Positions 28,900-45,959 of a DNA stretch of 64,000 nucleotides are shown piece by piece. Where the stretch lies: the NCBI GenBank assembly GCA_965656965.1, contig CBFHMK010000008.1, positions 30,970 to 94,969 of the forward strand. The letters are read 5' to 3'. Each line of letters begins with the position of its first letter. Positions within the stretch are counted from its first letter, which is position 1. The notes under the pieces were generated by a model that was given only the letters and a program-made list of their open reading frames with translations, did no database searches and was not told the DNA's origin. The stretch is from an uncultured Porticoccaceae bacterium (lineage in GTDB: Bacteria > Pseudomonadota > Gammaproteobacteria > Pseudomonadales > Porticoccaceae). Both the position numbers and the translations under genes were made by a program.

Positions 28900-30027
28900 A
28901 TGAAAATTTTGGTCACCGGGGGCGCTGGCTTTATTGGCTCTCATACAGTGGATCGCCTGGTTACAGAGGGTCATCAGGTGCGCATTTTGGACTGCCTAAA
29001 AAAACCTGTACACCTAAGAGGGCTGCCGGATTGGATAAACCCCGAGGCAGAATTTTTGCTGGGAGATGTGCGCAACAAAGTTGATCTAGAAAAGGCTATG
29101 CGGGGTGTTGATGCTATTTATCATTTGGCTGCCTATCAAGATTATCTGCCAGACTTTTCTGCCTTTATTCACACCAATGGGGTTAGTACCGCACTGATTT
29201 ATGAAATTATTGTTGAGCAAAAACTCCCCATCCAAAAAGTTGTCGTTGCCAGCAGTCAATTTGTGCAGGGCGAGGGCCGTTATATTTGTTCTCAATGCGC
29301 CGCGGATGTTTCGCCTCTTATGCGTGACGAAAGCCATTTATTAAAGGGTCAATGGCAACATCAATGCGCTGACTGTGGTGGACAGTTAGACTGGTGTTGG
29401 ACCAGTGAAGAACATATTGCTCCACCCAACGCCTACGCACTATCCAAGCACTCTCAGGAGCAGCAAGCAATCACATTTGGTCGGCGCTATGGCATACCCT
29501 CTGTAGCATTGCGATACTCGATAGTTCAGGGTGCCCGACAGTCCTTTTTTAATGCCTACAGCGGCGCCTGCAGGATTTTTTGTTTAAATTATTATTTTGC
29601 CAAGGCACCAACGCTCTACGAAGACGGCAATCAATGTCGAGATTTTGTCAATATCCATGATGTGGTTGAGGCCAATCTGTTGGCGCTTCACAGTACCCAG
29701 ATGGATGGCCAGGTATTTAACGTCGGTGGGGGAACCGCGTACAGTCTTGCCGATTTTGCTGAAATCGTTCGCAGTGCGGTGCAGCCTCATCATACTGATT
29801 TGCTTCCCACTCCAAGTATCCCCGGAGCTTACAGATTCGGTGATACTCGCAATGCCTGTTCCAATATAGATAAGCTCAGAGCCATAGGATGGCAGCCTAA
29901 GTTCTCGCCAGAAAATTCTGTGGCGGAGTATGTTGACTGGCTCTACGCACAGGAGAATGTTGAAGATATTCTTAATTATGCTGAACAAACCATGAAGAAA
30001 TTAAATGTGGTTAGGCAGAGCGCCTAA
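28900..30027 (+). CDS. Extended SDR NAD-dependent epimerase/dehydratase with CxxC...CxxC insert (WbiB-like)
   Basis: TGGAGFIGS, VASS, YALSK, RDFVNIHD; insert GEGRYICSQC...HQCADC. Start at ATG 28900. Confidence 0.8.
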   Translation: MKILVTGGAGFIGSHTVDRLVTEGHQVRILDCLKKPVHLRGLPDWINPEAEFLLGDVRNKVDLEKAMRGVDAIYHLAAYQDYLPDFSAFIHTNGVSTALIYEIIVEQKLPIQKVVVASSQFVQGEGRYICSQCAADVSPLMRDESHLLKGQWQHQCADCGGQLDWCWTSEEHIAPPNAYALSKHSQEQQAITFGRRYGIPSVALRYSIVQGARQSFFNAYSGACRIFCLNYYFAKAPTLYEDGNQCRDFVNIHDVVEANLLALHSTQMDGQVFNVGGGTAYSLADFAEIVRSAVQPHHTDLLPTPSIPGAYRFGDTRNACSNIDKLRAIGWQPKFSPENSVAEYVDWLYAQENVEDILNYAEQTMKKLNVVRQSA

Positions 30028-30056
30028 TTTAATTAGAACAACAAAGGATTGTTGAA

Positions 30057-30638
30057 ATGAACTGGTACTTTATGCGCCATGGACAGATTAATTCAAATCT
30101 TAACCATGTTTATTCAGGCCGTAGCGATGAACCCCTAAATAACTGTGGGGTAGAGCAGGCCCATGAGGCTGCCGAGTTAGTTAGTAAAGCGCCTATCGAT
30201 CGCATTATCTGTAGTCCATTAGTTAGAGCTACTCAGACATCCAATATTATTTCTATAGCTAATGACATTGGTTATGAGACGGATGATGCGTTTATAGAAA
30301 TGAAGTTTGGCCCCTGGGAAGGCAGGTCGGAATCCTGGGTCAAACAGCACTACCCCATTGAATGGGCGCTATGGAACAGAGCACCTCATCAACTCCAGCT
30401 TCCAAGGCGTGAGACATTGCTGGAACTGCAGAATAGGGTTATTAGTCGCATGCATAAGATTGCTATCGCTAAACCTGTGGAGAATATTTTAGTGGTTTCT
30501 CATGTAGCGGTTATTCGAGTGGTATTACTGCATTCCCAGAGGCGGCCTTTGTCAGACTATAAGCTAGTTGAGGTGGATAACTGCGCCCTATTTCAGGTCA
30601 ACTTGCAGGCTGCGCCGCACTGGGAGTCCTGTCTATGA
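30057..30638 (+). CDS. Histidine phosphatase (phosphoglycerate mutase superfamily)
   Basis: RHG catalytic motif, SPLVRA, EMKFGPWEG, VVSH; ATGA overlap with the next gene. Confidence 0.9.
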   Translation: MNWYFMRHGQINSNLNHVYSGRSDEPLNNCGVEQAHEAAELVSKAPIDRIICSPLVRATQTSNIISIANDIGYETDDAFIEMKFGPWEGRSESWVKQHYPIEWALWNRAPHQLQLPRRETLLELQNRVISRMHKIAIAKPVENILVVSHVAVIRVVLLHSQRRPLSDYKLVEVDNCALFQVNLQAAPHWESCL

Positions 30639-31345
30639 AGGCGATACTTCTTGTCGCTGGTTTGGGGTCAAGGCTGCGTCCTATGACTCATAAAATACCA
30701 AAGTGTTTGCTGCCAATTAATAGCCAGCCACTGCTGGGTATCTGGTTTAAAAAATTAGCCAGTGCTGGTGTTACTGAGGTATTGGTAAATACCCATTGGC
30801 TCGCCGATCAGGTAGAGGACTATGTTGCGCAAAACACACCCTCTGGGCTAACAGTTAGGCTGTTTGATGAGCCTGAACTTTTAGGCAGTGCTGGGACCCT
30901 GCTGGCCAACCAAGATTATCTGGGTAAACAGACTTTTTTTGTTATCTATGGCGACAATCTGTCTGATGTGAATTTGTCAGATATGTACCAGTCACATTTG
31001 CGCCATCGGCCAATACTCACTCTGGGGACTTTCAGTGCAGACAGTCCTCAGACATGTGGTATTGCCGAAATTGATGACCAAGGCTGGGTGCAGAGTTTTA
31101 TTGAAAAGCCCAGTAACCCAGTTTCTAACTGCGCCGCTGCGGGAATCTATGTGGTGGAGCCGGAGGTCTTTGATTACTTTCCTCAGCCAGATATCAATGG
31201 GCAACTGGATCTTGGCTTTGATGTCATCCCCAAATTAGTCGGCAATATGCATCATTACCCGATTAATTTATTGATAGATATTGGTACGCCTGACAGTTAT
31301 CGCCGAGCTCAGGATGCTCAGATCGATGCCCTGTTGGATATTTAA
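30635..31345 (+). CDS. hddC: Sugar-1-phosphate nucleotidyltransferase, heptose-1-phosphate guanylyltransferase-like
   Basis: LLVAGLGSRLRP..PK, ELLGSAG, YGDN, EKP, DIGTP. The hddC assignment rests on context with gmhA/hddA. Confidence 0.7.
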   Translation: MKAILLVAGLGSRLRPMTHKIPKCLLPINSQPLLGIWFKKLASAGVTEVLVNTHWLADQVEDYVAQNTPSGLTVRLFDEPELLGSAGTLLANQDYLGKQTFFVIYGDNLSDVNLSDMYQSHLRHRPILTLGTFSADSPQTCGIAEIDDQGWVQSFIEKPSNPVSNCAAAGIYVVEPEVFDYFPQPDINGQLDLGFDVIPKLVGNMHHYPINLLIDIGTPDSYRRAQDAQIDALLDI

Positions 31346-31365
31346 TCTAATGGAAGGATGGAACC

Positions 31366-32472
31366 GTGACTGGATTAACCCTAGCTGAACGCAACCTCTG
31401 GACCGTTTTGGGGTTGCCATTTGACCGAGTAAACAGGGAGGAGGCTGTTGCTCTGATTGAGCAATGTATTCGGACAGGGAGTCGCTGTTTTCTATCGACG
31501 CCAAACTTAAATTTTGTTGTACAGGCATACAGGGACAAGGCGTTCTATCGTTCGGTGCTCGAGAGCGATCTGGTGGTAGCAGATGGTATGCCGATTATAT
31601 GGGTGGCAAGGTTGCTAGGCATTCCTTTGCCAGAGCGAGTAGCCGGTTCATGTCTTTTTGAAAGCCTAGAACAGCAGAAGCCTGATAGGCCGATCCGAGT
31701 GTTCTTTTTTGGTGGTCAGGGTGATGCCGCAGAAAAGGCCGCTGCCAATCTTGCAGAGACCAGCCAGAGCATGGAGTGCTGCGGGTTTTTAAACCCCGGC
31801 CTGGGGACTGTAGATTCCATGAGTACTGATAAGATTATCCAGCAGATTAATAGGGCTCGGGCAGATTTTTTATTAGTGGCTCTTGGCGCCAAAAAAGGTC
31901 AGCACTGGATTCAGCATAATCGCTCTAGACTTGAAGCACCTGTAATCAGCCATCTAGGAGCAGTGATAAATTTTGTGGCTGGTGATGTTGAGCGTGCCCC
32001 TAAGTTATGGCAAAGATTGGGTGTTGAGTGGCTTTGGCGTGTTAAGCAAGAGCCTGGCCTGATGCGACGGTATATTTCAGATGGTCTGTGGTTTATCTAT
32101 TTATTAGTAGCTCGGGTATTTCCGTTGGCAATATATGACTCCATATTACAGCTGACAGCAGGTCCCCGACGGCCCCTCAAAATCAGCAGCAATCAGATTG
32201 ACCACTGTCTTGAACTGGCACTGGTTGGGTCGGCGACGGCGACAAATTGTCGACAGCTTAAGCTGGTCTGTGAAAAAGCGCTGAGTCAGCCATGTACTAT
32301 ACTCAGGCATGTGCAAATTGATTGCTCTGAGTTGGTTTATATCGATAGCGCGGCGGTGGCGGTACTTTTGATATTTGAAGCAACTCTGACACAAAGAGGG
32401 CAGAGCCTGACATTTCTACATATTAATGGACGTATTAAAAGGTTAATTGGGTTGCAGGCGTTGCATCGTTAG
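31366..32472 (+). CDS. WecB/TagA/CpsF family glycosyltransferase fused to a C-terminal STAS domain
   Basis: TPNLNF, ADGMPI, ERVAGS, VALGAKK, RAP..WQRLGVEWLWR; C-terminal IDCSELVYIDSAAVAVLL STAS motif. Confidence 0.85.
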   Translation: MTGLTLAERNLWTVLGLPFDRVNREEAVALIEQCIRTGSRCFLSTPNLNFVVQAYRDKAFYRSVLESDLVVADGMPIIWVARLLGIPLPERVAGSCLFESLEQQKPDRPIRVFFFGGQGDAAEKAAANLAETSQSMECCGFLNPGLGTVDSMSTDKIIQQINRARADFLLVALGAKKGQHWIQHNRSRLEAPVISHLGAVINFVAGDVERAPKLWQRLGVEWLWRVKQEPGLMRRYISDGLWFIYLLVARVFPLAIYDSILQLTAGPRRPLKISSNQIDHCLELALVGSATATNCRQLKLVCEKALSQPCTILRHVQIDCSELVYIDSAAVAVLLIFEATLTQRGQSLTFLHINGRIKRLIGLQALHR

Positions 32473-32496
32473 TTTTTTCTCTGAATGCTGTCTGTC

Positions 32497-32661
32497 GCTT
32501 AGGGCTCTTTATAGCTGAGGGCTCTTTATGGCTGAGGGCTCTTTATAGCTGAGGGCTCTTTATAGCTGAGGGCTCTTTATAGCTGAGGGCTCTTTATAGC
32601 TGAGGGCTCTTTATAGCTGAGGGCTCTTTATAGCTGAGGGCTCTCATGGCTGAGGGCTCTT
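32497..32661. repeat. 17-bp tandem repeat (GCTGAGGGCTCTTTATA), about 9.8 copies
   Basis: Units start at 32497, 32514, 32531, 32548, 32565, 32582, 32599, 32616, 32633 (16 bp variant) and 32649 (partial). Six central units are identical; no spacers. Confidence 0.98.
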
Positions 32662-32670
32662 GGCAAAAAA

Positions 32671-34302
32671 ATGGAGTTGAATCAGGAAATGGATTTTAAG
32701 GATAGTACTGCAGCTGTGCCGTCGCCGGAAAAATTTTATGCATTAGCTGAGTTGTTAGCTAAACCTGGATTTTGGGTAGGCATCGGCGCGATTTTGGTTG
32801 GTCTATGGCTTTATTGGGATGGTTTAGCTGAGGCGGTTCTGCGCTGGGAAAGGCAGGCAGAATACAGTCACGGCTACCTAATTCCTCTGGTGTCTCTATT
32901 TATCCTCTGGGAGAAGCGCTTTGAGATTATTGCCGGTTATCGTCGTCCTTCCTGGTGGGGCTTGCCAGTCATTATTCTGGCCCTGATTGTTCTGGTTGTT
33001 GGCGAGATCAGCGCGTTGTTTGTGCTGATTCATTATTCCTTTATTTTGTTTCTGTTTGGTCTATCTCTGGCATGGCTGGGCAGTGCAGCCAGGCATACCT
33101 GGGTACCTATTCTACTGCTGGGCTTTGCTGTGCCTTTGCCCTATTTTATTGAGGTGATTCTCACCGCAAAGTTGCAGTTGGTTTCTTCTCAGTTGGGTGT
33201 TGACATTATCCGCCTGTGTGGGATTCCGGTATTTCTCAGCGGCAACATTATTGATCTGGGTGATTACCAATTACAGGTGGTAGAGGCCTGTAGTGGCTTG
33301 CGCTATTTATTTCCCCTCATGAGTCTTGGTTTTATTGCCGCCTATCTGTATCAGGCTGCTTGGTGGAAACGGGTCTTACTATTTATTTCAACTGTACCTA
33401 TCACCATCTTTATGAATAGTTTTCGCATCGCGGTGACTGGGCTCTTGGTAGACAACTGGGGCACCCAGATGGCCGAGGGATTTCTGCATGATTTTGAAGG
33501 CTGGTTAATCTTTATGGCCTGTGGCTGTTTGATGCTATTAGAAATTATGTTGATGGAGCGCTTCACCAGCAGGCAGAAAATCCATCAGGCATTTGCGGTG
33601 CCTGTGCAAATTGGAGCAGCAGGTCTGCACAACAAAAAGCCGACTGAGCTAATTATCTCCCGACCACTGCTGATAGCTATTCCATTATTACTCATAGCGG
33701 TTATATTTTTGTATTCTGTGAAGGCACGACAGGAACCTGCGCTGGCGACCAATGGCGCATTAATTGATTATCCAATCCGACTGGGGGACTGGAATGGCGT
33801 GCATGACAGTATCGATACTCTGGTCGCTGAGAAGCTCGGCTTTACTGACTATGTGATGCTTAACTATACCAATCTCGAGCACCAGCCAATCAATTTCTAT
33901 GTTGCTTACTATGCTTCTCAGCGCAAAGGGCTCTCACCCCATTCACCCAAGGTCTGTATTCCGGGTGGCGGCTGGGAAATAGCAGATTTTCGCCGTACTC
34001 AGGTGGACGATATACCGGTTAATCGGGCATTGATTCGCAAAGGTAATCAAGACCAAATTGTTTACTACTGGTTTGAAGAGCGCGGAGTTGCTGTGGCCAA
34101 CGAGTATTTAAAAAAATGGATGTTGTTTAAAGATGCACTATTTCTCAATCGAACTGATGGCTCTCTGGTGAGAGTCACCACGCCTGTATTAAGCCATGAG
34201 TCAATGGAGGACGCAGATCAAAGAGCTCGTGGATTTATTCGTATTTCACACAATCAATTATCGCAACTTTTACCAAGTCATAACTTGGAGGGAACAAAAT
34301 GA
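32671..34302 (+). CDS. xrtD: Exosortase (EpsH domain) fused to an EpsI domain, VPLPA-CTERM-specific XrtD-like
   Basis: EYSHGYLIP, catalytic Cys in VVEACSGLRY, Arg in NSFRI, His in LHDFEGW, EpsI motif HSPKVCIPGGGWEI. Subfamily inferred from the VPLPA target in the block. Confidence 0.85.
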   Translation: MELNQEMDFKDSTAAVPSPEKFYALAELLAKPGFWVGIGAILVGLWLYWDGLAEAVLRWERQAEYSHGYLIPLVSLFILWEKRFEIIAGYRRPSWWGLPVIILALIVLVVGEISALFVLIHYSFILFLFGLSLAWLGSAARHTWVPILLLGFAVPLPYFIEVILTAKLQLVSSQLGVDIIRLCGIPVFLSGNIIDLGDYQLQVVEACSGLRYLFPLMSLGFIAAYLYQAAWWKRVLLFISTVPITIFMNSFRIAVTGLLVDNWGTQMAEGFLHDFEGWLIFMACGCLMLLEIMLMERFTSRQKIHQAFAVPVQIGAAGLHNKKPTELIISRPLLIAIPLLLIAVIFLYSVKARQEPALATNGALIDYPIRLGDWNGVHDSIDTLVAEKLGFTDYVMLNYTNLEHQPINFYVAYYASQRKGLSPHSPKVCIPGGGWEIADFRRTQVDDIPVNRALIRKGNQDQIVYYWFEERGVAVANEYLKKWMLFKDALFLNRTDGSLVRVTTPVLSHESMEDADQRARGFIRISHNQLSQLLPSHNLEGTK

Positions 34303-36695
34303 GCGGCATAGCTATAAAGACTATTTGTAAGATTTTAACCCTGAGTATATTTGTATTTGCTGTCTCAGCTTGTAGCAGCTCAAAGGAAGAGGCGGCAAAT
34401 AAATATCTCAACAGTGGCATCCAGTTATTTGAGGATGAAAAATTATCTAAAGCCAGTGTTGAATTGCGCAATGCGTTGCAGATTGATCCAAAGTTAGCCC
34501 AGGCATACTTCTATTTGGCATTGATCTCTGAGCAGGAGCAAAACTGGAAGTCGATGTTCAAAAATTTAACCAGAGTGGAGCAGCTTGATAAGGCCCATAT
34601 TGATGCAAGGGTAAAACTTGGCTATCTAATGTTAATGGCCAACCAGTTTGATTCGGCTATTGAAAAGGCAGATGCGGTGTTATTGCTACAGAGAGATAAT
34701 GCCGACGGCTACCTAATTAAAGCTTCGGCCTTTCTGGGCAAGGGTCTGCTGGATGTAGCTATGACCTATGTAACAAAGGCCTCCGAAGCTGAGGGAGACT
34801 TTATTGAGATCTCTACAATTCAGGCCTCGATACTGCATAGGCAAGGGAAGTCGGCCGAGGCGCTAGAGATTTTAGCTAATGTTATAGCTCAAGAAGAAGA
34901 GGATTTGCATCTTGTGCTGTTGCGCACTGAGATCAATCAGGATCTCGATGACGTGCAGGCCATCGAAGCAGACTACCGGCGAATAATTCAAGCCTACCCC
35001 TCGGAGAGAAGCTTTCACTTAAAATTGGTCGCTTTACTGCGCGACGAGGGCCGTTGGCAAGAGGCTCAGGCTGCTTTAGAGCAATACCTGCGCCGTTATC
35101 CACAGGATACTGAGGTGCGGATGGCCTTGGTGCAGCTGATAGCTGATAGCGATCAGCAGCAAGCTGCTGCCCTGCTAAATCGCTATATCAGTCAGGAGCC
35201 GCAGAATGCTGAGTTGCTGTTTTTCCGCATTAACAGAATGTTATCAGCAGGCGCCGAGCAGGAGGCTTTGGCTGAGTTAGAGTCTGTTAGTAGCGCAGAT
35301 TTTGACGATCAGCAAATATTCCGTGCCCTTGCCATGCAGGCTGAAATCAAATTATCTGCCGATCAGCGCGACCAGGCGCTTACTCTTCTCAGTAGGGTCT
35401 TGGAGTTAGATGGTCACTTTGAGCAGGCCCTGTTAGCCAGAGCTCGATACTATCTTATGGCAGAAGATATAGACTCTGCAGTGACGGATCTGCGTGTGGT
35501 GCTGCGCAATAATCCGGAGTCGGAAAGGGCTCTAGTGATGCTGGCTAACGCCTATATTAGTTCTGGCTCACAACAGTTGGCTGACGACACCTTTAGAAAG
35601 GTTTTGGATATTAATCCGGGTAATATCCAGGCGGCTGTCCCAGTAATTAAAGGCCTGTTGGAGAAACATGACTCCGATCGATCTGAGCGTATCATTGAAA
35701 ATGCATTGGCTCACTCACCAGACAATGACGTATTGCTGTCCATTCTTGCGCAAATCAAACTTTCTAATCAGGATCTAGAGGGAAGCCAGAAGGTAATTTC
35801 CAAGATTAAGTCAGCAGGACGCAACCCAGCTTTTGGTTATTATCTATCTGGTCGAGCGCAGCAGGCTCAGGGTAAGTACAGGCAGGCTGTTGAGAGTTAC
35901 AAGCAGGCCCTAGCACTAAATCCTGAGTTGACTCGAGCGCTTGAAAGCTTGGCTCAGTCCTACGGTCGTCTTAATAAACAGCAGGAGTTATTAGACTACC
36001 TTGTAAAATTTAGTCAGGAACATACTGACAACCTGTCCGCCTTTTCCGTCATGGCGACCATTCAGCGCCAGCTAAAGGATTACTCTGGTGCTATCAAAAC
36101 CATTGAGCTGGGCCTTGAGCGAGAGCCGTCTTGGGTAGGTGGCTACAGTGCACTCGCTGGTAATCATATTTCCATGGCTAACTATGAACTGGCTGTGGAG
36201 GCTTATCAAAGAGGGTTGAGTGCCGTCCCAGATAGCAGTCTATTGAAAATGTTGCTGGCATCATCCTATGAGAGATTAGAAGATTTTGATCGAGCCAGGT
36301 CACTCTATGAGCAGGTATTGGAGATCAATCCTAATCACCATACCGTAATTAATAACCTTGCCAGCCTACTGACGGATCGCTTTGCCTCTACTGACAATAT
36401 CAGGCGTGCTGTCACTTTAACAGAGCGTTTTGCTGATTCTGAACAGCCTTTCTTTGTAGATACCTATGCCTGGGCGCTGTTAAAGTCCGGGCTTCCCCAG
36501 GTGGCTGAACCGCTTTTCGATCGGGTTACTACAATGGCTCCAGATGTTGCAATCTTTCATTACCACCGCGGTGTTGGTCTTAAGCTGATGGGTAAATTTG
36601 ATGAAGCAAAAACTGTTTTAACTGAAGCTCGCGATAAAGTGGGAACTAACGCCTCGTTAAAGGCCCAGATAGAAAGGGAGCTGGCAAGTCTCTAG
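34299..36695 (+). CDS. TPR-repeat lipoprotein, PrsT-like
   Basis: Lipobox AVSAC, many TPRs (NALQIDP, VLDINP, ALALNP), NNLA...DTYAW C-terminal motif; overlaps the exosortase stop. Confidence 0.85.
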   Translation: MSGIAIKTICKILTLSIFVFAVSACSSSKEEAANKYLNSGIQLFEDEKLSKASVELRNALQIDPKLAQAYFYLALISEQEQNWKSMFKNLTRVEQLDKAHIDARVKLGYLMLMANQFDSAIEKADAVLLLQRDNADGYLIKASAFLGKGLLDVAMTYVTKASEAEGDFIEISTIQASILHRQGKSAEALEILANVIAQEEEDLHLVLLRTEINQDLDDVQAIEADYRRIIQAYPSERSFHLKLVALLRDEGRWQEAQAALEQYLRRYPQDTEVRMALVQLIADSDQQQAAALLNRYISQEPQNAELLFFRINRMLSAGAEQEALAELESVSSADFDDQQIFRALAMQAEIKLSADQRDQALTLLSRVLELDGHFEQALLARARYYLMAEDIDSAVTDLRVVLRNNPESERALVMLANAYISSGSQQLADDTFRKVLDINPGNIQAAVPVIKGLLEKHDSDRSERIIENALAHSPDNDVLLSILAQIKLSNQDLEGSQKVISKIKSAGRNPAFGYYLSGRAQQAQGKYRQAVESYKQALALNPELTRALESLAQSYGRLNKQQELLDYLVKFSQEHTDNLSAFSVMATIQRQLKDYSGAIKTIELGLEREPSWVGGYSALAGNHISMANYELAVEAYQRGLSAVPDSSLLKMLLASSYERLEDFDRARSLYEQVLEINPNHHTVINNLASLLTDRFASTDNIRRAVTLTERFADSEQPFFVDTYAWALLKSGLPQVAEPLFDRVTTMAPDVAIFHYHRGVGLKLMGKFDEAKTVLTEARDKVGTNASLKAQIERELASL

Positions 36696-36918: not shown

Positions 36919-37596
36919 ATGCACGTTCTTATTGTTGATGATCATGCTTTCGTCTGTGTTGGTCTCAAGGCGACATTAAGCGAAGAGTTTGAAAATATTC
37001 AGGTTACCACCACCGACCATGGTGACGATGCACTGACCATTTTGGCAAAAAATGAAATAGATCTAGCCATCGTGGATTTATTTATGCCTGGAGGGGCCGG
37101 TGGCTTTAACTTTATTGAAATGCTTTGCGAAAGCTATCCTAAACTCCCATTAATTGTATTATCGGCGTCAGAAAATCCTGCACATATACGTAAGTGTCTC
37201 GATTTTGGTGTGGCGGGGTTCGTAACCAAATCAGCACCAAAAGATGCCTTGTTTGAGGCCATATCTAAGGCATTGTCAGGTGAGCGATATGTCCCTGAAT
37301 CATTAATAGAATCCATGCCAGAAGTAGCGCGAGTAATCGATGAGGTCGATTCCGGTGCGGACGTTGATATTATTTCAGGTCTGGTCACTGATCGGCAGAT
37401 GGATATATTGCGCAGGATTACTCAGGGGCGCTCCAATAAGCAAATTGCCCGTGAGCTGGATCTCTCTGAAAACACAGTTAAGGTCCATGTTAGTGCAATG
37501 TTAAGAGCATTGGGGCTTAGCAATAGAACTCAAGCGGGAATTCTCGGGCAGAAACTGGGCCTATCAGAACCCTCAGATACTCATAAATACCCCTGA
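36919..37596 (+). CDS. NarL/LuxR-family response regulator
   Basis: LIVDDH, AIVDLFMP phospho-Asp, LSAS, VTKS, LuxR HTH GRSNKQIARELDLSENTVKVHVS. Confidence 0.95.
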   Translation: MHVLIVDDHAFVCVGLKATLSEEFENIQVTTTDHGDDALTILAKNEIDLAIVDLFMPGGAGGFNFIEMLCESYPKLPLIVLSASENPAHIRKCLDFGVAGFVTKSAPKDALFEAISKALSGERYVPESLIESMPEVARVIDEVDSGADVDIISGLVTDRQMDILRRITQGRSNKQIARELDLSENTVKVHVSAMLRALGLSNRTQAGILGQKLGLSEPSDTHKYP

Positions 37597-37627
37597 GCTA
37601 GAATCTCAGAAAATAAAGAGACCTTAA

Positions 37628-39676
37628 ATGATTAAAAATAGAAATAATATCTGCATTTTTCTGATGCTAATTCCTGCACTATCGGCATCCAGCCTCGCAG
37701 ATATTGTGGTCACAGAGGATGATCTGCTTGCAGATATTCATCTGGTCTCTAGTGTGACCCATATGAATCAGCCTCAAAGCCAGACTCCTGCGGCAGTGAC
37801 CATTATTGATCGAAGAACTATCGATGCCTCTGCAGCTGTTGATGTGTTGGATTTATTTCGTCTAGTGCCAGGATTTCGGACTTACTTCGTTAATGCTAAC
37901 GCACCTAGCTTGAGCTACCATTCTGTGGGTGAAAGTTACCCTCGTCGATTAGAGGTAAAAATCGATGGTCGCTCTGTTTATGAGTCTATTTTTTCATCCG
38001 TAGAGTGGAACACCCTGGGGGTGGAGCTCGAGGATATTGATTATATCGAAATAGTGAGGGGAGGTAATGCCCCCGCGGACGGGAGCAACGCATTTCTAGC
38101 TTCAATTAATATAGTGACTCGGTCACCATTGCTGGACAGTGGCTGGAATCTGCGCGCCCAATTTGGCAGCGATAATATTCGCAATAGGTCGATAACATAT
38201 TCAGGCAAGCTGGGGGAGATCGACCATCGCACTACGTTGCGGCATAGGTCCAATGATGGGTTCAGAGACTTTTCTGGTGAGTATAGAGGTCAGCAGAGAG
38301 ATATTAGTCTTGACGATGGCACAGAGACCATAACCCTGGGTTTTAAGGGACTCTGGACACCCAGAGCATCGGACAGTGTTGAACTGCAGTTTGGTTTCAA
38401 TGACAGTGAGGTGGGTATCGGGGAGAGGGAATATCAGCTGCAAGAGACCGATTACCAATACCAGCACCTTGCCTGGTCCCATAGTGGCAATGGCAGCAAC
38501 CAATATGAGTTGATTGTTTATCATAATAAATTTGATATTAACCAGGCTCAGGACCCGCTAACATTCTATCAAGCATTAACTTTTTTTCCTGAGGGGCCAA
38601 CCAAACTGGCACTATCGCAGCTGCCAGATAAGTTAATTATTGAACCTGAAAGTATTATAGTCTCCGAGCGATGGGACGCGGAATTTAGAGCAAATTTTGA
38701 GGCCACAGACTCTATCCGTGGTGTCTATGGTGTAGCTGCTAGGAAAGACCGGGTTTCGAGCAACACACTTTTTGATATGAGTGGCTCTGCCAGTCAAGAG
38801 TCCTATCGGAGTTACTTAAACCTGGAATGGAGAGCTCTGAATAATATTAGCTTTAATGCTGGATTTATTTCTGAATACCGAAATAAAAGTAGAAACGTCA
38901 ATTCCTACCGAATCGCCAACAACTACCAGGTCTCGGAGGATCACAGTATAAGACTGGCCTATAATCGAGGTTACCGAGCTCCCACGATGTTGGAAAGCCA
39001 GCAGAACACTACTGTTCGTTACAATGAGAACTTAATTCTTGATGCGTCAATACAGTCTGATGCGAATGTTGAACCTGAGTTATTGTCTAGCTCTGAGCTA
39101 GGCTACTCTGGGTTTTTCCTAAACCAAACTCTAAATGTTGATGTGCGTCTATACAGAGAGCGGATGTCTGATCTAATCGGTGAGCGTCGAGAAAGTTATC
39201 CAGACTTCGACGGTCAGCTAAATATTCGCGACAATATAGGTAGCGCTGAAGTAACGGGGATCGAGTGGCAGGTTCAGTACAGGCCCGACAATCACTGGCT
39301 GGTGCACGCTAATTACAGTTATACGGATTTGCAGCAGGACTACCTTTACCGATCTAGTCCAGAGATCGAAATTCGCGATTTTAGTAGGCTTAATCCCCAT
39401 CACCTGGGCGGGCTGTTGATCAGCTATCTAACAGAAGACAACCTTAGCTTTAGCACTATGGTTAATCACCAAAGCAGGATTCACCATTTTTCAGGTGTTG
39501 ATGATGAGGGATATACCCGTGTTGATTTTAAGCTGGCCAAAAAGTGGCGGGCGAAGCAGCGAGATGCAGAATTATCTTTGACCGTACAAAACATTGGCTC
39601 TGACTACAGAGAGTTCTATTTTTTCAACCAGTTTAAAACCAGATATGTTCTGGGTTTGCAAATTGGGTTTCCTTAG
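37628..39676 (+). CDS. TonB-dependent receptor
   Basis: Signal peptide, plug motifs PAAVTII, DLFRLVPG, KIDGRSVY, IEIVRGG..GSNAF..INIVT; C-terminal LGLQIGFP. Confidence 0.92.
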   Translation: MIKNRNNICIFLMLIPALSASSLADIVVTEDDLLADIHLVSSVTHMNQPQSQTPAAVTIIDRRTIDASAAVDVLDLFRLVPGFRTYFVNANAPSLSYHSVGESYPRRLEVKIDGRSVYESIFSSVEWNTLGVELEDIDYIEIVRGGNAPADGSNAFLASINIVTRSPLLDSGWNLRAQFGSDNIRNRSITYSGKLGEIDHRTTLRHRSNDGFRDFSGEYRGQQRDISLDDGTETITLGFKGLWTPRASDSVELQFGFNDSEVGIGEREYQLQETDYQYQHLAWSHSGNGSNQYELIVYHNKFDINQAQDPLTFYQALTFFPEGPTKLALSQLPDKLIIEPESIIVSERWDAEFRANFEATDSIRGVYGVAARKDRVSSNTLFDMSGSASQESYRSYLNLEWRALNNISFNAGFISEYRNKSRNVNSYRIANNYQVSEDHSIRLAYNRGYRAPTMLESQQNTTVRYNENLILDASIQSDANVEPELLSSSELGYSGFFLNQTLNVDVRLYRERMSDLIGERRESYPDFDGQLNIRDNIGSAEVTGIEWQVQYRPDNHWLVHANYSYTDLQQDYLYRSSPEIEIRDFSRLNPHHLGGLLISYLTEDNLSFSTMVNHQSRIHHFSGVDDEGYTRVDFKLAKKWRAKQRDAELSLTVQNIGSDYREFYFFNQFKTRYVLGLQIGFP

Positions 39677-39723
39677 AAACTGAGATGCGAGTCCCCCGTT
39701 AATAGCAAAATATTTAACTTATT

Positions 39724-40710
39724 ATGACTATATCGGCCATGCAATCAGAATCCTATAGCTCGATTAAATATTGGGCCCTGTTCCTTTGCGTGACTTTTTT
39801 GTTCTATCTGGCACCAGCGATTGCTCTAGAGACTCAAGCCTCCCAGAGTATACTCTTTATTATGAGCAAGGACGCTCCTGCATATTCGCAGGTGGTAGAT
39901 TTTGTTGAGTCAAATTTAAGTGCTACTAGGCGGTCCTATTCTTTTCGTAGGCTGCTAAAAAACGACAGCTCCGAGCTTGCCGAGCGTCTGAAAGATGCCG
40001 ATATTATTGTGACTGTGGGTGCGGGAGCTACCGAAACTGCGATGAAGGAAAAGCCCGTACAGCCGCTTATAGCGGCGTTGATTACCGATAGTGCATTTTC
40101 GGCATTGGCTAATAATTACTATGGTTCTACACCTCAAGCGCTAGCTGCTAGAGTTTCTGTTATCTGTTTGGACCAGCCGGTCCAGCGCAGTATTAAACTG
40201 GCCAAGCTTCTTGTTCCTTCAGCCTCGAGTACCGGTTTGATGCTAGGTCCAGCATCACAGGGTAGGGGGGAAGAGTTTTCTCAGTATGCCTCTGAGGTTG
40301 GTCTAACAGCCAATCTAGTAAATATTGAGTCCAGTGATAACCCTATTTTGGCTATTGAGCCGGTGCTAGCGAAAAGCGATGTGTTTATCCCAGTACCAGA
40401 CAGCAGGCTTATTAATATTGCTTCTGCGAAGTGGATATTGCAGTTGAGTTATAGATATCGAATTCCAGTTATTGCCTATTCAAAGACTTATCTCAATGCA
40501 GGTGCCCTGGCAGCAATTTATTCATCACCAGAAAACGTAGGCCGACAGACCTCAGAGTTAATACTAAATCAGTCGACGGACATCACTAGCAAAGGTGGGG
40601 CTCATATGCCCGCTTATTTCTCAGTTCAGTTTAATACAACCGTTGCCGGGCATTTAAGAATCCCGTTAGAGGAAACGCAGTTTTATATAGATCGGCTGCT
40701 GGATAATTAA
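39724..40710 (+). CDS. Periplasmic ABC-type substrate-binding protein (no permease or ATPase nearby)
   Basis: Signal peptide, IIVTVGAGA, DQPVQR, IPVIAYSKTYLNAGALAAIYSSPE (ABC_sub_bind-like). Confidence 0.8.
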   Translation: MTISAMQSESYSSIKYWALFLCVTFLFYLAPAIALETQASQSILFIMSKDAPAYSQVVDFVESNLSATRRSYSFRRLLKNDSSELAERLKDADIIVTVGAGATETAMKEKPVQPLIAALITDSAFSALANNYYGSTPQALAARVSVICLDQPVQRSIKLAKLLVPSASSTGLMLGPASQGRGEEFSQYASEVGLTANLVNIESSDNPILAIEPVLAKSDVFIPVPDSRLINIASAKWILQLSYRYRIPVIAYSKTYLNAGALAAIYSSPENVGRQTSELILNQSTDITSKGGAHMPAYFSVQFNTTVAGHLRIPLEETQFYIDRLLDN

Positions 40711-40711
40711 G

Positions 40712-42961
40712 ATGCTAAAAAACCGCGACTACAACAGTATTCATACGAGACTTCTTATTACAGGCTTAATCCCCCTAGCCCTGCTAAGTCTAGTCTTGGG
40801 CTGGTATATGATCTCTACGCAGAGCTCTGAACTATTATCCAATATGCATGATACGGGCAGAGTCGCGACTAACCAGATGGCCTCCAACGCAGAGTTTGCT
40901 CTGTACTCCGGTAATGAGGAAATGCTGGAAACATTGGGGTACTCAATTCTGGATATTCCCTCGGTGTCGGGGATCCTTTTTTATAATACTGTTGATGATC
41001 GCACCGTAAGGATTGGCGATATCGACTTTGCGACTCAGCGAATGCCAGACAACTTTGATCTGGGCCCTCCATTTTTTAGAGACAACCAGTGGTATTTTTA
41101 TTCAAAGATCACGCTAAACCGAGGTCTCACCGAAGACTATGATGAATTTGGTCAGGCTGAGTCAGAAGTCATAGGTTGGGTTCTGGTGTCCCTGACTAAT
41201 GAAATCCTGATACAAAAACAGCGGCAGGCTATATTTGGTGCCCTGATCGTAATCAGTCTTGGTTTGTTGGTTGCTGCCTGGATATCCATGCGTATAGGCC
41301 GAAGTATTTCCAAGCCATTAGAAAATTTAACTCAGGTTGTTGAGGTGATGGAGACCGGGGAGTTAGATTCTCTGGCTAGTGAAGAGGGGCCGCTGGAATT
41401 ACGCAAGCTAGCTTACGACATTAACCAATTAGCCACTAGCGTTCGTCAATCTAACGTCCGTATGCAAAGTGAAATCGCTCGCGCTACCGCGCAGTTACAG
41501 ATTACCCTAATCGAACTTGAAGAGGCTATGGAGGCACAGGATCAGTTTTTGGCTCGAATGAGCCATGAGCTTCGTACCCCGCTAACGGCGGTTATTGGGT
41601 TCTCAAGATTGTTGTTCACCGAGCTAGATAGCGGCAAGAGAAATGAGCATTTGCGAGTCATTGAACGCTCATCAACCATGCTACTGACCATGATTGACGA
41701 TATTCTCGAGTTCTCAAAAGCTCATGATGGGGGTTTTACTCTAGAGCAAATCAACTTCGATATACGTCAGTGGATGAGTGACCTGATGGAAATTCACCGC
41801 CAGCGCGCCGAGGAGAAAGATTTACAGTTTACCTACGAAATTTCCTCAGATGTTCCAGAAAAACTCTGTGGTGATCCGGTGCGGTTATCTCAGGTGGTTG
41901 CTAACTTAATCAACAACGCAATCAAGTTTACCGAGAAGGGTTTTGTTCACCTGCAGATAGAAAGTCTGTCCAATAAAGATGGCATTATTAATCTGCAGTG
42001 CTCCGTCTCTGATTCCGGCAAGGGTATTGCCCAAGACAAAATTGCCGGTTTATTTGAACCCTTTTCACAGGAAGACACCTCGATCAATCGGCGCTATGGC
42101 GGCACTGGGTTGGGCCTCTCGATCTGTAAGCGACTGGCGGAGACAATGGGCGGAGACGTGACTATTGAGAGTAGGGAGAGCCATGGCTCTACCATCAGTT
42201 TTACCTGCTGCCTATCTGAGGTTGACCCAGCGTATTCAATGGCAATGGCTGATCAGATCGCTGTTGAGCCGGAACCACTGCTATCGGGATTAATCATATT
42301 AATTGCCGAAGACAACCCTTTTAATCAGAAGCTGATTTTGAAGCTATTAGAGGCCTATGGAGCCACCTGTATGCTCGCCAATAATGGTCAGGAGGCTATA
42401 GAATTGGCAGGCGAATTACATGTTGACGCGGTGCTTATGGATATTCATATGCCAGTGGTTGATGGCGTGACCGCCTGTGAGACTATTATGCAGCAGTCAG
42501 GTGAGAGCCCGCCAATTATCGGGCTCACGGCAGATATTACCCAGGCTGAGCATCAGAGAATGATGTCAGCTGGGGCTATCAGTATTCAATCCAAGCCGCT
42601 TGAGGAAGTAAATCTAGTGAATGCTATTCTCAGTGCTCTAAGTGACCAGCGAGAACTCTCCGAGCAGTCCTCCGAAGGTCTGTTATCTTCAGTTATTCCT
42701 GCACAGGAGCTCAAGGCGGCACTAATTGATAATCTACATTTGCTGGAGCAACAGCTAACTGCTAATGAGAAAGCTAGCCTCCGACAAATCATTCATGATC
42801 TCATGGGCCTTTGCGGGCTATATGGCATGTTTGAGTTGCGTGAGCTAGTGCTGACGTTTAGAGCCACTTACAGCTCTTTGACTGTGGCTGAAAACCTCAA
42901 AAAGGTGCAGATTATCCGTCAACATATTGAAGATTCTTTTAGGGGAAAATCCTCCAACTAA
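40712..42961 (+). CDS. Hybrid sensor histidine kinase, BarA/GacS-like (periplasmic sensor, HAMP, HisKA, HATPase, REC, Hpt)
   Basis: H-box ARMSHELRTPL, N-box NLINNAIKFT, DSGKGI, GGTGLGL, REC LIAEDN...LMDIHMP...KP, C-terminal HDLMG Hpt-like His. N-terminal TM and sensor layout resembles GacS/BarA. Confidence 0.9.
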   Translation: MLKNRDYNSIHTRLLITGLIPLALLSLVLGWYMISTQSSELLSNMHDTGRVATNQMASNAEFALYSGNEEMLETLGYSILDIPSVSGILFYNTVDDRTVRIGDIDFATQRMPDNFDLGPPFFRDNQWYFYSKITLNRGLTEDYDEFGQAESEVIGWVLVSLTNEILIQKQRQAIFGALIVISLGLLVAAWISMRIGRSISKPLENLTQVVEVMETGELDSLASEEGPLELRKLAYDINQLATSVRQSNVRMQSEIARATAQLQITLIELEEAMEAQDQFLARMSHELRTPLTAVIGFSRLLFTELDSGKRNEHLRVIERSSTMLLTMIDDILEFSKAHDGGFTLEQINFDIRQWMSDLMEIHRQRAEEKDLQFTYEISSDVPEKLCGDPVRLSQVVANLINNAIKFTEKGFVHLQIESLSNKDGIINLQCSVSDSGKGIAQDKIAGLFEPFSQEDTSINRRYGGTGLGLSICKRLAETMGGDVTIESRESHGSTISFTCCLSEVDPAYSMAMADQIAVEPEPLLSGLIILIAEDNPFNQKLILKLLEAYGATCMLANNGQEAIELAGELHVDAVLMDIHMPVVDGVTACETIMQQSGESPPIIGLTADITQAEHQRMMSAGAISIQSKPLEEVNLVNAILSALSDQRELSEQSSEGLLSSVIPAQELKAALIDNLHLLEQQLTANEKASLRQIIHDLMGLCGLYGMFELRELVLTFRATYSSLTVAENLKKVQIIRQHIEDSFRGKSSN

Positions 42962-43035
42962 TACTTTTGTATTAACTCGTCAGTGTAATTTATTTATCCC
43001 GAAAAATTCCGTATCTTACAACCTAGCATTGACTC

Positions 43036-43343
43036 CTTGGCATGAAGCTTTGACAGGGACTTTACTGGTAAAAATACACAGACCTACACTGCTGTAAGAA
43101 AGACAACACTGATAAATAGGAAGTTTAAGAGCTAAGTTGACAGGGAGTTGACTTCAAAGGATAGACGCTCAATCAGTTGTTATATTTCGTTTGCTACCAG
43201 TTGTGCGGTATAGACGACTTGGATGTCGTGCGCCATGGAAGGCGCGGGTCAATCTTTAGATTGCTAACACGTTTCGCGTTGTTTTGGGTTCCCCACTTTA
43301 TAACCTTATAGATATCCTAAGCCCAAGGGCTTAGGTTTTTTTT
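43036..43343 (+). ncRNA. Candidate CsrB/RsmY/RsmZ-type CsrA-titrating small RNA (5' end uncertain, 43036-43110)
   Basis: Four hairpins with GGA in the loop (43113-43127, 43134-43154, 43214-43229, 43230-43245), two more GGA motifs (43057, 43159), no ORF in the six-frame track, and a strong intrinsic terminator at the end. Confidence 0.7.
43316..43343 (+). terminator. Rho-independent terminator
   Basis: CCTAAGCC-CAAG-GGCTTAGG-TTTTTTTT: perfect 8-bp stem followed by 8 T. Confidence 0.93.
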
Positions 43344-43472
43344 GCCTGACTATTTCATATTATGACTAGCCTACTTGCTACTGCCCAGAGACCTGTTGAT
43401 AAGAATTACTTTTACTCTCAGGGCTTTAGGCCATAGACTGGAGCCATTCAAGCCTCAAGTCTAAAAGACCCT

Positions 43473-45959
43473 ATGTCAAAAAAAACCAAACAGATAGATC
43501 CTTTCGCCAGTAGAGAAGCCGCTAACTATCAGCGGCCTATCCCAAGTCGTGAGTTTGTGCTCGACTATCTCAGCGAAAGTGTTGGCCCTGTAACCCACGA
43601 AGAGATCTGCGCAGCCCTTCAGTTAACTGATGAAGTTCAGGTCGAAGCAATGCGTCGTCGTCTCAGGGCGATGGAGCGAGATGGCCAGGTGGCCCGCAAT
43701 CGTCGCGGTGGTTATGGCACCTTGGATAAACTAAATTTGGTAAAGGGAAGAGTGATAGGCCATCCCGAAGGCTATGGGTTTGTCTCGCCAGTACAGGGTG
43801 ATGGGCAGGATATTTATCTCTCTAGTGCGCAGATGAGGCGTGTTTTTGATGGCGATATTGTGCTTGTCAGAATTGCCGGATGGGATCGCCGTGGGCGACC
43901 TGAGGGTAGTTTGGTGGATGTGGTTGAGCGCAAAACCACACAGCTAGTCGGGCGCTTTTTCTGTGAAAGCGGCATCAATTTTGTACGCCCTGATAATCCG
44001 CGTATTAGCCAAGATATCCTGATACCTGCAGATAAGCGCTTAAATGCTACCTCGGGGCAGATAGTGGTAGTGGAAATATCCGAGCCACCATCCCGTAATA
44101 GTCTGCCCGTCGGTTATATTTCTGAGGTGCTGGGCGAGCATCTGGATCCCGGCCTAGAAATTGATATGTCTATCCGCAACTACGGCATTCCCCATCAATG
44201 GAATGATCAGGTGTTGGAGGAAACAGCTGCAATCCCGGATCAGGTTGAGGACAGCGGTCTGCGAGTGGACTTACGCAATACACCGCTGATTACCATTGAT
44301 GGCGAAGATGCTCGAGACTTTGATGATGCGGTTTACTGCCAGCCCAAACCCCGAGGAGGCTGGTCTCTAATTGTTGCTATCGCGGATGTATCTCATTATG
44401 TCAGCGCGGGCTCAGCGCTGGATACCGAGGCCTTCCATCGGGGCAACTCCGTATATTTCCCCAATCACGTAGTACCCATGCTGCCAGAAAAGCTTTCCAA
44501 TGGCCTGTGCTCGTTAAATCCCGCTGAAGATCGCCTCTGTATGGTTTGTGAGATGCAGATCAGTGCCGAGGGTGATGTAAGCCGCTACCAATTTTATGAA
44601 GGCATAATGCACTCTCACGCCAGAACCACCTACACTCAGGTGGCGCAAATTATTGCAGATAGGGTTCAGGAGAATCGCTCTGGTGTGCGCAAACAGTTCT
44701 CCTCCATTTTGCCCCAGGTTGATGCGCTGCATGATTTATACAAAGTACTGCACAGGCGCAGAACCAAACGGGGAGCCATTGACTTTGATAGCCAAGAAAC
44801 CCGAATTCTCTTCGATAGTCAGCGCAAAATTAGTCAGATTATTCCCGTTGATCGTACCGAGGCCCATCGTCTAATTGAAGAGTGTATGCTCTGCGCTAAT
44901 GTCTGTGCTGCTGAGTTTTTAGAAAAAGTTAAAATCCCCGCTTTGTTTCGTGTCCATGAAGGCCCCAGCGAAGAGAGGCTGTCCTCTGTTCGTGACTTTC
45001 TGGGTGAGCTTGGTATTGGCCTGGGGGGTGGAGATGACCCTCAACCCGAAGACTATCAGCGTGTCCTGCGGGCTGTAAAAGGCCGTGATGATGCTGCGAT
45101 TATTCAGTCAGTCATGCTGCGTTCGATGAGCCAGGCTATGTATCAGCCGGAGAATATGGGACATTTCGGACTAGCATTTGATGCCTATAGCCACTTTACA
45201 TCACCGATACGTCGCTATGCAGATCTGCTTGTTCACAGAGCCATTCGAAGTGTTATAAGGAGTAAGAAAAAGACCTCTGCAGTGCAGCGGGTGCCTGGGG
45301 CGACGCTGCTCGAACTACAAACTATTTATCCCTATGACCTGGGTCGCCTAGACGAGACTGGCGAGCATCTCTCGGTCACCGAGCGTCGTGCCGACGAGGC
45401 GACTAGGGACGTGGTCAACTGGCTCAAGTGCGAATATCTCATGGATAGAGTGGGCGAACAGTATTCTGGCGTCGTCAGTGCTGTGACTGGTTTTGGTTTG
45501 TTTGTCATGCTTGATGATCTCTATGTCGAGGGGTTAATACATGTTACTGGGCTACCCAAAGATTACTATTATCATGAAGCCTCCCACCACCGTATGGTGG
45601 GCGAACGTACCGGGCGAGTGTTTCGACTGGGTCAGAAGCTGCGGGTCAAAGTAGTTCGTGTTAATTTAGAAGAGCGTAAAATAGACTTTGAACTGCTGGA
45701 TGGCACCAACTCAGAAACTCCCGGCAAAGCATCTAAAGGGCGCGGCAAGAGTGGTGGTGGCGAGAGGCCTCGAGTGTCTTCGAGAGCAGCCGAAATGGCA
45801 TCAGAGCATGAGAAAAAACGCAGTACTCGTGGCAAGGGAGCCAATAAGAAAGCTGCTGCCGGCAAGAAAAAGCCGATTTCTAAAAGGCGCAAAAACAAAC
45901 CCGCGTCAGGGGCTGCTGGAAAATCCTCTGTGGGTAAAAGAAAAAAGACTCGCAGTTAA
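43473..45959 (+). CDS. rnr: Ribonuclease R
   Basis: GHPEGYGF cold-shock domain, ITIDGEDARDFDDAV, HFTSPIRRYADL, S1 domain, basic C-terminal tail. Confidence 0.98.
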   Translation: MSKKTKQIDPFASREAANYQRPIPSREFVLDYLSESVGPVTHEEICAALQLTDEVQVEAMRRRLRAMERDGQVARNRRGGYGTLDKLNLVKGRVIGHPEGYGFVSPVQGDGQDIYLSSAQMRRVFDGDIVLVRIAGWDRRGRPEGSLVDVVERKTTQLVGRFFCESGINFVRPDNPRISQDILIPADKRLNATSGQIVVVEISEPPSRNSLPVGYISEVLGEHLDPGLEIDMSIRNYGIPHQWNDQVLEETAAIPDQVEDSGLRVDLRNTPLITIDGEDARDFDDAVYCQPKPRGGWSLIVAIADVSHYVSAGSALDTEAFHRGNSVYFPNHVVPMLPEKLSNGLCSLNPAEDRLCMVCEMQISAEGDVSRYQFYEGIMHSHARTTYTQVAQIIADRVQENRSGVRKQFSSILPQVDALHDLYKVLHRRRTKRGAIDFDSQETRILFDSQRKISQIIPVDRTEAHRLIEECMLCANVCAAEFLEKVKIPALFRVHEGPSEERLSSVRDFLGELGIGLGGGDDPQPEDYQRVLRAVKGRDDAAIIQSVMLRSMSQAMYQPENMGHFGLAFDAYSHFTSPIRRYADLLVHRAIRSVIRSKKKTSAVQRVPGATLLELQTIYPYDLGRLDETGEHLSVTERRADEATRDVVNWLKCEYLMDRVGEQYSGVVSAVTGFGLFVMLDDLYVEGLIHVTGLPKDYYYHEASHHRMVGERTGRVFRLGQKLRVKVVRVNLEERKIDFELLDGTNSETPGKASKGRGKSGGGERPRVSSRAAEMASEHEKKRSTRGKGANKKAAAGKKKPISKRRKNKPASGAAGKSSVGKRKKTRS

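Follow-up and report, generated by a model that had tools for sequence, protein, structure and literature searches.

The stretch of DNA analysed here, called the window throughout, comprises 64,000 nucleotides of contig CBFHMK010000008.1 from the assembly GCA_965656965.1 of an uncultured Porticoccaceae bacterium, and all coordinates are counted within it. Its subject is a cassette of four tandem open reading frames (ORFs) on the + strand, 36919-42961, which encode in order a response regulator, a TonB-dependent outer-membrane receptor, a periplasmic binding protein and a hybrid histidine kinase, and which are followed by a gene for a small RNA (sRNA) (Table 1). The gaps between the genes measure 31, 47 and 1 nt, so that the cassette is operon-like. 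A preliminary description of this DNA had reported five tightly packed elements directly after xrtD-prsT; all of them are present on the + strand within 36919-43343, but their order had been misjudged, the regulator gene standing first rather than fourth.

Table 1. Features of the cassette, the small RNA gene and their surroundings (window coordinates)
Feature	Coordinates	Strand	Basis or conservation
NarL/GerE-type response regulator, 225 aa, first gene of the operon	36919..37596	+	Pfam Response_reg and GerE
TonB-dependent outer-membrane receptor, 682 aa, plain transporter type	37628..39676	+	Pfam Plug, TonB_dep_Rec_b-barrel
Periplasmic binding protein of PF04392 (ABC_sub_bind), 328 aa	39724..40710	+	Pfam
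Unorthodox hybrid histidine kinase of probable BarA/GacS lineage, 749 aa	40712..42961	+	Pfam, NCBIfam, BarA alignment
Box: palindrome TAATAC-N4-GTATTA (42960-42975), then AGTGTAAT (42982-42989)	42958..42989	+	Alignments, box scans
-10-like hexamer TATCTT	43012..43017	+	Alignments; TAnnnT in all relatives
sRNA gene, ~320 nt: core 43028-43256, variable spacer, terminator 43316-43343	43024..43343	+	Conservation, covariation, terminator
Unpaired GGA (ACAGGGAC)	43057..43059	+	Kept in 28/28 sequences
Unpaired GGA (AUAGGAAG)	43119..43121	+	Kept in 23/28 sequences
Hairpin AGUUGAC-AGGGA-GUUGACU, GGA 43144-43146	43135..43153	+	7 pairs, 3 compensatory; loop invariant in 28/28
Unpaired GGA (AAAGGAU)	43159..43161	+	Kept in 27/28 sequences
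Hairpin ACGAC-UUGGAU-GUCGU, GGA 43221-43223	43214..43229	+	5 pairs; GGA in 27/28
Hairpin GCGCC-AUGGAA-GGCGC, GGA 43237-43239	43230..43245	+	5 pairs, 2 compensatory; GGA in 28/28
rnr promoter-like box TTTACT, 17 nt, TAGACT, in AATTnCTTTTACTC...ATAGACTG	43411..43439	+	Alignments
rnr (RNase R)	43473..45959
XrtD/EPS island (glycosyltransferase/Wzx/Wzz/XrtD), ~32 kb	4633..36695

A scan of one genome per species recovered 45 loci, all of them from SAR92/Porticoccaceae (individual loci are cited below as L001 and so on). In every locus of sufficient length the order is regulator, receptor, binding protein, kinase, gap, rnr and DUF484, set within a family-wide synteny that runs ffh-rpsP-rimM-trmD-rplS ... 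rnr-DUF484-dapF-lysA-argH. Additionally, the kinase was used as a query against 1.8 billion representatives, and beyond the Porticoccaceae orthologues it finds kinases of ~750-770 aa and of 900-917 aa, which are 36-40% identical to it and score 480-540 bits on the BarA model. The cassette genes recur beside such kinases in several arrangements: regulator, receptor, PF04392 protein and kinase (911 aa) in L059; receptor, PF04392 protein and kinase in L060; regulator, PF04392 protein, kinase and receptor in L063; regulator, receptor, binding protein and kinase in L075; regulator, binding protein, two receptors and kinase in L077; and receptor, DJ-1, a binding-protein-like ORF overlapping the kinase start, and kinase in L058 (Motiliproteus sp. 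SC1-56). A divergent receptor gene precedes regulator and kinase in L061/L062. Since the association survives this reshuffling of gene order, it provides good evidence of functional coupling, and, judged by these comparisons, receptor, binding protein, kinase and regulator are a genuine conserved module that has relatives in other marine Gammaproteobacteria. The self-contained module envisaged in the preliminary description agrees with both patterns, colinearity within the Porticoccaceae and regrouping in unrelated contigs, one of them from Motiliproteus. Neither this gene combination nor Csr systems in SAR92 turned up in the literature searches.

The kinase consists of a transmembrane segment, a periplasmic sCache_4-like domain, a second transmembrane segment, HAMP, HisKA and HATPase domains, a receiver (REC) domain and an Hpt-like tail. 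In Pfam, HAMP (29.7 bits) lies above its cutoff and HisKA, HATPase_c and Response_reg lie well above theirs, while two matches are sub-threshold, namely sCache_4 (19.1 bits against a cutoff of 22.1, E=0.0012) and Hpt (18.2 bits against 24.6, E=0.0029). BarA is the best NCBIfam model by ~100 bits; the score of 422.7 bits does not reach the cutoff of 890, which appears to be tuned to enteric BarA, since the closest ~900-aa relatives also attain only 518-541 bits on this model. Over residues 9-497, periplasmic domain included, the kinase is 33% identical to Escherichia coli BarA, and its C-terminal motif IIHDLMGLCGLYG aligns to LIHKLHGSCGYSG of E. coli BarA, an Hpt histidine motif that we take to be the site of His861. 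The kinase thus probably belongs to the BarA/GacS lineage and carries the Hpt histidine in its tail, and the BarA/GacS architecture earlier ascribed to it was essentially right.

The regulator combines a receiver domain (Response_reg, 77.7 bits) with a LuxR/GerE helix-turn-helix (GerE, 64.6 bits), and among the NCBIfam models ErdR (122 bits) and NarL (110 bits) match it best. The UvrY/SirA/GacA model gives it 81.7 bits against a cutoff of 280, compared with 451 bits for the E. coli UvrY control, and its identity with E. coli UvrY amounts to 27%. It had been described as NarL-type like UvrY/GacA; the shared NarL fold stands, but, going by these scores, the protein is a generic NarL-type regulator and no GacA/UvrY orthologue. 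Across the Porticoccaceae it is 68-96% identical, and compared with the regulators of L059, L061 and L063 it is 42-48% identical, with a recognition-helix region that is nearly the same in all of these and unlike that of UvrY. Upstream of the regulator operon (36790-36815) lies a semi-conserved, palindrome-like TATGC-N6-GCATA, also seen in L011, L012, L014, L017, L018 and L053, which may be the site of another regulator.

The receptor has a Plug domain at residues 50-155 and a barrel; Pfam found no STN signalling domain, and the protein scores under the cutoff of every NCBIfam receptor family. Across the Porticoccaceae it is 40-65% identical. A weak match to the TOL_0244 family, whose namesake is alkane-induced in Thalassolituus (PMC6304351), lies far under the cutoff and was set aside as a guide to the ligand. 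The binding protein matches PF04392 with 42.5 bits against a cutoff of 25.9, its nearest solved structures being 3lkv and 3lft, and among the matches listed every organism-named homologue is from the Porticoccaceae. The PF04392 members of known structure bind Trp, Tyr or Phe (PMC10443332), and aromatic amino acids may serve as a first guess for the ligand, nothing more.

The gene for the binding protein stops one base before the kinase start codon and overlaps the kinase start in relatives, and the coupling of these two genes is kept in every arrangement that has the binding protein. The protein scan covered nearly every window ORF of 150 aa or more; among these and in the syntenic loci there was no ABC permease or ATPase, tonB, exbB, PrsK or PrsR, as the preliminary description had noted for the transporter partners and for tonB/exbB, and no sigma or anti-sigma genes lie near the cassette among the scanned ORFs. 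Because no ABC transporter accompanies it and its gene abuts or overlaps the kinase start, the binding protein would most likely be the ligand-sensing co-receptor of the kinase, as LuxP is for LuxQ and TorT for TorS. The co-encoded TonB receptor would most likely let the ligand into the periplasm, and the kinase would send phosphate through a His-Asp-His relay to the adjacent regulator.

The box that follows the kinase gene has its palindrome centred ~56 bp upstream of the predicted sRNA start. It occurs once in the window, where a scan did not find it upstream of the regulator gene or inside the EPS (exopolysaccharide) island. Within 790 kb of Porticoccaceae loci it is confined to the position immediately behind the kinase gene, where 39 of 44 loci have it and the remaining five have more degenerate versions. 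Transcription is predicted to start at ~43023-43024; in a close relative, a metatranscriptome contig has its end at 43023, seven bases past the -10-like TATCTT. The sRNA promoter was not called by the sigma-70 promoter scan because it has no good -35. Two other elements were considered and rejected. A sigma-54 promoter, TGGCATGAAGC at 43039, lies in a segment inside the conserved RNA, and its GG is AG (TAGCATGATGC) in half of the relatives. A GacA box has the form TGTAAG-N6-CTTACA; in the window TGTAAT (42984) and CTTACA (43015) lie 25 nt apart, and CTTACA is not conserved.

The box also recurs near the cassettes of the relatives: it follows the kinase gene in L059 and L061, the receptor gene in L063 and, in two copies, the kinase gene in L077. 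In L061, L059 and L066 a box also stands in front of the regulator operon, and L060 has a more degenerate box after the kinase gene. The L061 box has the same AGTGTAAT at the same spacing as in the window, together with a -10-like element. Box and regulator thus occur together, and this distribution makes the box the probable binding site of the regulator, which would bind TAATAC-N4-GTATTA and switch on the adjoining sRNA gene. In L077 the region after the kinase gene (10300-10740) consists of two tandem repeats, each with its box preceded by TTTCGTAAATACGGCAT and with a short transcript-like stretch, not rich in GGA, behind it; beyond the repeats a tRNA-like sequence lies on the opposite strand.

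Alternatively, a canonical GacS/GacA pair or some other regulator from elsewhere in the genome could drive the sRNA, whose place beside the operon would then be inherited synteny and no sign of a functional link. The gene order of the region is conserved family-wide, so that adjacency of sRNA and operon alone is weak evidence of a link. The box, however, differs from the GacA box, and it travels with the regulator family where the neighbours differ and rnr is missing (L059, L061, L063, L077). In L070 and L074, moreover, regulator and kinase are followed by the rnr promoter, and sRNA and box are missing jointly, as are receptor and binding protein. Control from elsewhere is accordingly rated very unlikely. 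The rnr promoter-like box itself is conserved in all Porticoccaceae loci and in L070 and L074, which have no sRNA between the kinase gene and rnr, and on this distribution it is separate from the sRNA gene.

Control of the sRNA by the adjacent regulator being preferred, the RNA itself can be considered. The gap between the kinase gene and rnr, 511 bp in the window, spans 420-1000 bp in the Porticoccaceae and holds the box, TAnnnT, a conserved ~230-nt block, a variable spacer and a terminator, which in the window is a strong intrinsic terminator with a long U tail. According to an nhmmer profile, the sRNA is present in one copy per locus, always on the + strand, and in every Porticoccaceae locus that reaches the gap (degenerate in L019, short in L030), with full or partial extra copies in tandem in L004, L028, L034, L039 and L042. 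Among these, L034 (13225-13981) has one full copy and three partial ones, and the extra-copy region of L028 spans 13201-13668. L004 (7005-7472) has two copies and L005 (4271-4502) one, the binding proteins of the two loci being identical.

Structure prediction with RNAalifold on 28 sequences gave 45 pairs, 19 of them with compensatory changes. Of the cells, 97.7% are paired, against 28-40% when the partners are slid, and none of 500 shuffles reached the observed covariation. Only transcription of the + strand is compatible with the many G-U pairs in the helices. A multi-branched domain is closed by pairing of the 5' end (43028-43035) with 43246-43253, and the covariance model R1, built from one clade, recovers the complete RNA of the distant clade at the expected position (E from 1e-5 to 1e-10). 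Folded alone, the sequence has an unremarkable energy (z = -0.40), so it is covariation that carries the structure. Because it is conserved across species, covaries and keeps six GGA near-invariant and unpaired, the RNA is judged real and, by comparative analysis, a new structured family; the sRNA gene noted after the kinase gene in the preliminary description is upheld, with a terminator and a promoter-like element of its own. Contig depth in metatranscriptome assemblies, which reflects expression only roughly, reaches 89 and ~30 on the sRNA compared with 3-10 on the kinase gene and rnr, which fits an abundant independent transcript.

The six GGA sites of the core all stand in unpaired columns and are near-invariant, while other unpaired columns average 74% identity. 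Three of them lie in the hairpin loops C-AGGGA-G, C-UUGGAU-G and C-AUGGAA-G, which fit the CsrA/RsmE hairpin consensus; the stem at 43230-43245 varies in a compensatory manner (GCACC/GGUGC, GCGCU/AGCGC), and its loop has the form ANGGAN closed by C-G. The motif ANGGA occurs four times in the core against 1.3 expected, a marginal enrichment (P about 0.03). A clearer case is provided by L061, in which the ~280 nt after the box contain 15 GGA against 6.7 +/- 1.9 expected and a maximum of 13 in 1000 shuffles. This RNA contains no TCC, and hence no GGA on the opposite strand, has a terminator and adjoins a homologous pair of response regulator and histidine kinase; by any count of its sequence it is unmistakably Csr-type. 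The short RNA of L059 has a hairpin CGGC-UGGAU-GUCG like the one at 43214-43229 of the window, and a GGA in its terminator loop. Tandem amplification, as seen in the loci with extra copies, is a sponge-like trait known from RsmX. With its multiple hairpins and six single-stranded GGA, three of them in CsrA-type loops, the ~320-nt RNA would most likely sequester CsrA/RsmA, and a CsrA sponge is the likeliest single function of the sRNA, at an about even chance.

The favoured model of the whole locus is a self-contained signalling module of SAR92/Porticoccaceae that would end in a CsrA-sequestering RNA, and the case for it is evenly balanced. Put forward more tentatively, with less than an even chance, is an undescribed Gac-like pathway of marine Gammaproteobacteria, leading from a dedicated PF04392 protein, loaded through a TonB-dependent receptor of its own, to a BarA/GacS-family kinase and a non-GacA NarL regulator, whose main direct target would be the neighbouring gene for a CsrA-titrating RNA of a new family. 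Of the cascade originally proposed, the logic holds, with a conserved module, a BarA-lineage kinase and a linked sRNA with its box, but the attachment to EPS does not.

Several observations weigh against the favoured model. The RNA had been called GGA-rich, which is overstated: its 239-nt core has 6 GGA where dinucleotide shuffles predict 4.7 (P about 0.3), and one GGA per 40-50 nt is far sparser than in CsrB or RsmY/Z. In a divergent Porticoccaceae clade, clade B, the two 3' loops read AGGGUA and AUAGAY and contain no GGA, and the box-driven small transcripts of L060 and L077 show no GGA enrichment. Rfam gave no match in the window at the gathering threshold, no Csr/Rsm match in 42800-43600 at E up to 10 and no relevant match on L059-L063, so that its Csr/Rsm models fit neither the window RNA nor these relatives. 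The abundance of the transcript is read from the rough depth proxy mentioned above. Furthermore, pairs of regulator and kinase without binding protein or receptor exist in L061, L070, L071 and L074, which makes those two components accessory, and the receptor may lie on the output side of the system instead of feeding it.

The points concerning the RNA would be accommodated if it were real and regulated and yet no CsrA sponge, acting instead by base-pairing with mRNAs (Hfq/ProQ) or by binding another protein through its GGA loops. The unenriched GGA density, the Rfam result and the RNAs of L060 and L077 are in keeping with this, as is the replacement of GGA by GGU/AGA in two conserved loops of clade B while the overall structure is kept; a long U-tailed terminator would also suit an Hfq-dependent sRNA. 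It sits poorly with six invariant unpaired GGA, three of them in C-(A/U)NGGAN-G or C-AGGGA-G hairpins, with the unmistakably GGA-rich counterpart in L061 and with the sponge-like tandem copies. A function other than CsrA sequestration is accordingly rated somewhat unlikely. Clade B comprises L008, L038, L040 and L043-L051 (for example L008, 6951-7159); its 3' stems are kept and the altered loops are strictly conserved, which suggests an altered or different binding partner. The leader of the regulator gene (36889-36921) reads ACGGAAGUGAAC-CAAGGAUUGAAAUUAUG (CAAGGAAUG in most relatives) and contains two GGA, one of them in the Shine-Dalgarno sequence. It is kept in the clade with the GGA-loop sRNA and missing in the clade without loop GGA; CsrA feedback on the regulator would be in keeping with such a leader, although one of its GGA simply is the ribosome-binding site.

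The remaining points bear on the receptor and the binding protein, which might both be outputs of a two-component system that senses directly through its sCache-like domain and induces uptake. This would explain why the L061 box sits between the divergent receptor gene and the regulator gene, and relatives that have regulator and kinase alone would be expected. A binding protein without permease or ATPase, however, cannot complete uptake, its gene is coupled to that of the kinase wherever it is found, and in the Porticoccaceae no box precedes the single operon of the four genes. A role as outputs is therefore considered unlikely, and a sensory role of the two proteins upstream of the kinase is retained in what follows.

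The preliminary description had tied the cascade to the exosortase/EPS locus next to it. On the 5' side of the window lie ffh, rimM and trmD, with rplS placed by synteny, and then the XrtD/EPS island, which occupies the space between rplS and the regulator gene. Directly upstream of the cassette are XrtD (TIGR04152, 538 bits against a cutoff of 400) and a PrsT-like tetratricopeptide repeat (TPR) protein, whose 276 bits against a cutoff of 312 are sub-threshold; the absence of PrsK and PrsR from the locus, also noted earlier, agrees with the scan of window ORFs. Among ~35 informative species of the family, ~17 have XrtD-PrsT or a shortened island upstream of the regulator, and ~18 have trmD-rplS directly. 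The presence, shortening or absence of the island by species can be followed by comparing the window with L001 (5683-6881), L011, L014 and L041. What remains in L001 and L002 is a 182-aa ORF and a truncated CoA_binding_3 fragment, counterparts of the first two island genes, which points to deletion of the island there. No exosortase was found near the cassette in the relatives outside the Porticoccaceae.

It might still be that the purpose of the module, as first proposed, is to regulate the neighbouring XrtD/EPS surface-layer genes by way of CsrA. XrtD-PrsT stands directly upstream in the window and in the ~17 species just mentioned, and clade B, which has no island, is also the clade without GGA in its 3' loops. 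Yet the ~18 species without the island keep cassette and sRNA, L001 even with remnants of the deleted island, relatives outside the family have no exosortase nearby, and the island contains no box. The gene-neighbourhood comparison thus does not bear out exosortase linkage as a general property, an outcome that the preliminary description had itself named as counting against its proposal, and dedicated EPS control is judged quite unlikely. Judged by its distribution, the XrtD/EPS island varies as a neighbour at a conserved site of the chromosome and is no defined target, although regulation of EPS through CsrA in particular lineages is conceivable. Just upstream of xrtD, 31366-32472 encodes a WecB/TagA/CpsF-type glycosyltransferase with a C-terminal STAS/anti-sigma-antagonist-like domain (residues 271-366). 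On the 3' side the cassette is followed by rnr, DUF484, dapF, lysA, argH, a LytTR regulator, hemCDXY, tilS, pyrG and kdsA.

What GacS/BarA-type kinases sense is reportedly largely unresolved, as the review 'The Evanescent GacS Signal' is said to conclude. The locus described here ties a kinase of probable BarA/GacS lineage genetically to a binding protein and an outer-membrane importer, and so offers a concrete candidate route for a ligand, centred on one soluble protein. Kinase, regulator, box and sRNA lie side by side, so that a single fragment of ~6.4 kb would suffice to move or dissect a complete Gac/Csr-like circuit. The new sRNA family appears to be abundant in marine metatranscriptomes of SAR92, a major polysaccharide-degrading clade. 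The tempting view of the circuit as a dedicated exosortase/EPS regulator is corrected at the same time.

Among known systems, LuxP-LuxQ, TorT-TorS, ChvE-VirA and AioX-AioS resemble the locus in placing an ABC-less periplasmic binding protein beside a hybrid kinase with a periplasmic sensor. They differ from it in that the binding protein here belongs to PF04392 and comes with a dedicated TonB receptor, its interaction with the kinase being a prediction. Literature searches yielded no description of PF04392 proteins as kinase co-receptors, and to our knowledge no such role has been reported for the family. Unlike FecA-FecR-FecI transducers, the cassette has no STN domain, anti-sigma factor or extracytoplasmic function (ECF) sigma factor, so that any signalling would proceed through the imported ligand and not through the receptor itself. 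With PEP-CTERM/exosortase loci the window shares XrtD, the PrsT-like TPR protein and an EPS gene set directly upstream of the cassette. In contrast to exosortase loci with PrsK/PrsR, it has neither of these regulators, and the cassette is kept where the island is missing and, elsewhere, where there are no exosortases.

The closest likeness is to GacS/GacA-RsmXYZ, BarA/UvrY-CsrB/C, VarS/VarA-CsrBCD and LetS/LetA-RsmYZ. As in these cascades, a BarA-type kinase with sCache_4-like and HAMP domains and a predicted His-Asp-His relay is combined with a NarL-type regulator, a palindromic box precedes an sRNA gene with GGA in hairpin loops and an intrinsic terminator, and the sRNA promoter seems to be the only local target. 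Unlike in these cascades, the genes for kinase, regulator and sRNA are contiguous here instead of scattered, the regulator is non-orthologous, the box is different, the GGA density is much lower, and the RNA has no Rfam match. The cassette additionally encodes a binding protein and a TonB receptor, and we know of no such partners for the Gac, Bar, Var and Let systems. With its hypothetical CsrA binding, ligand path and EPS control, the system is best placed with the Gac/Csr kind, as a variant that has a new sRNA family.

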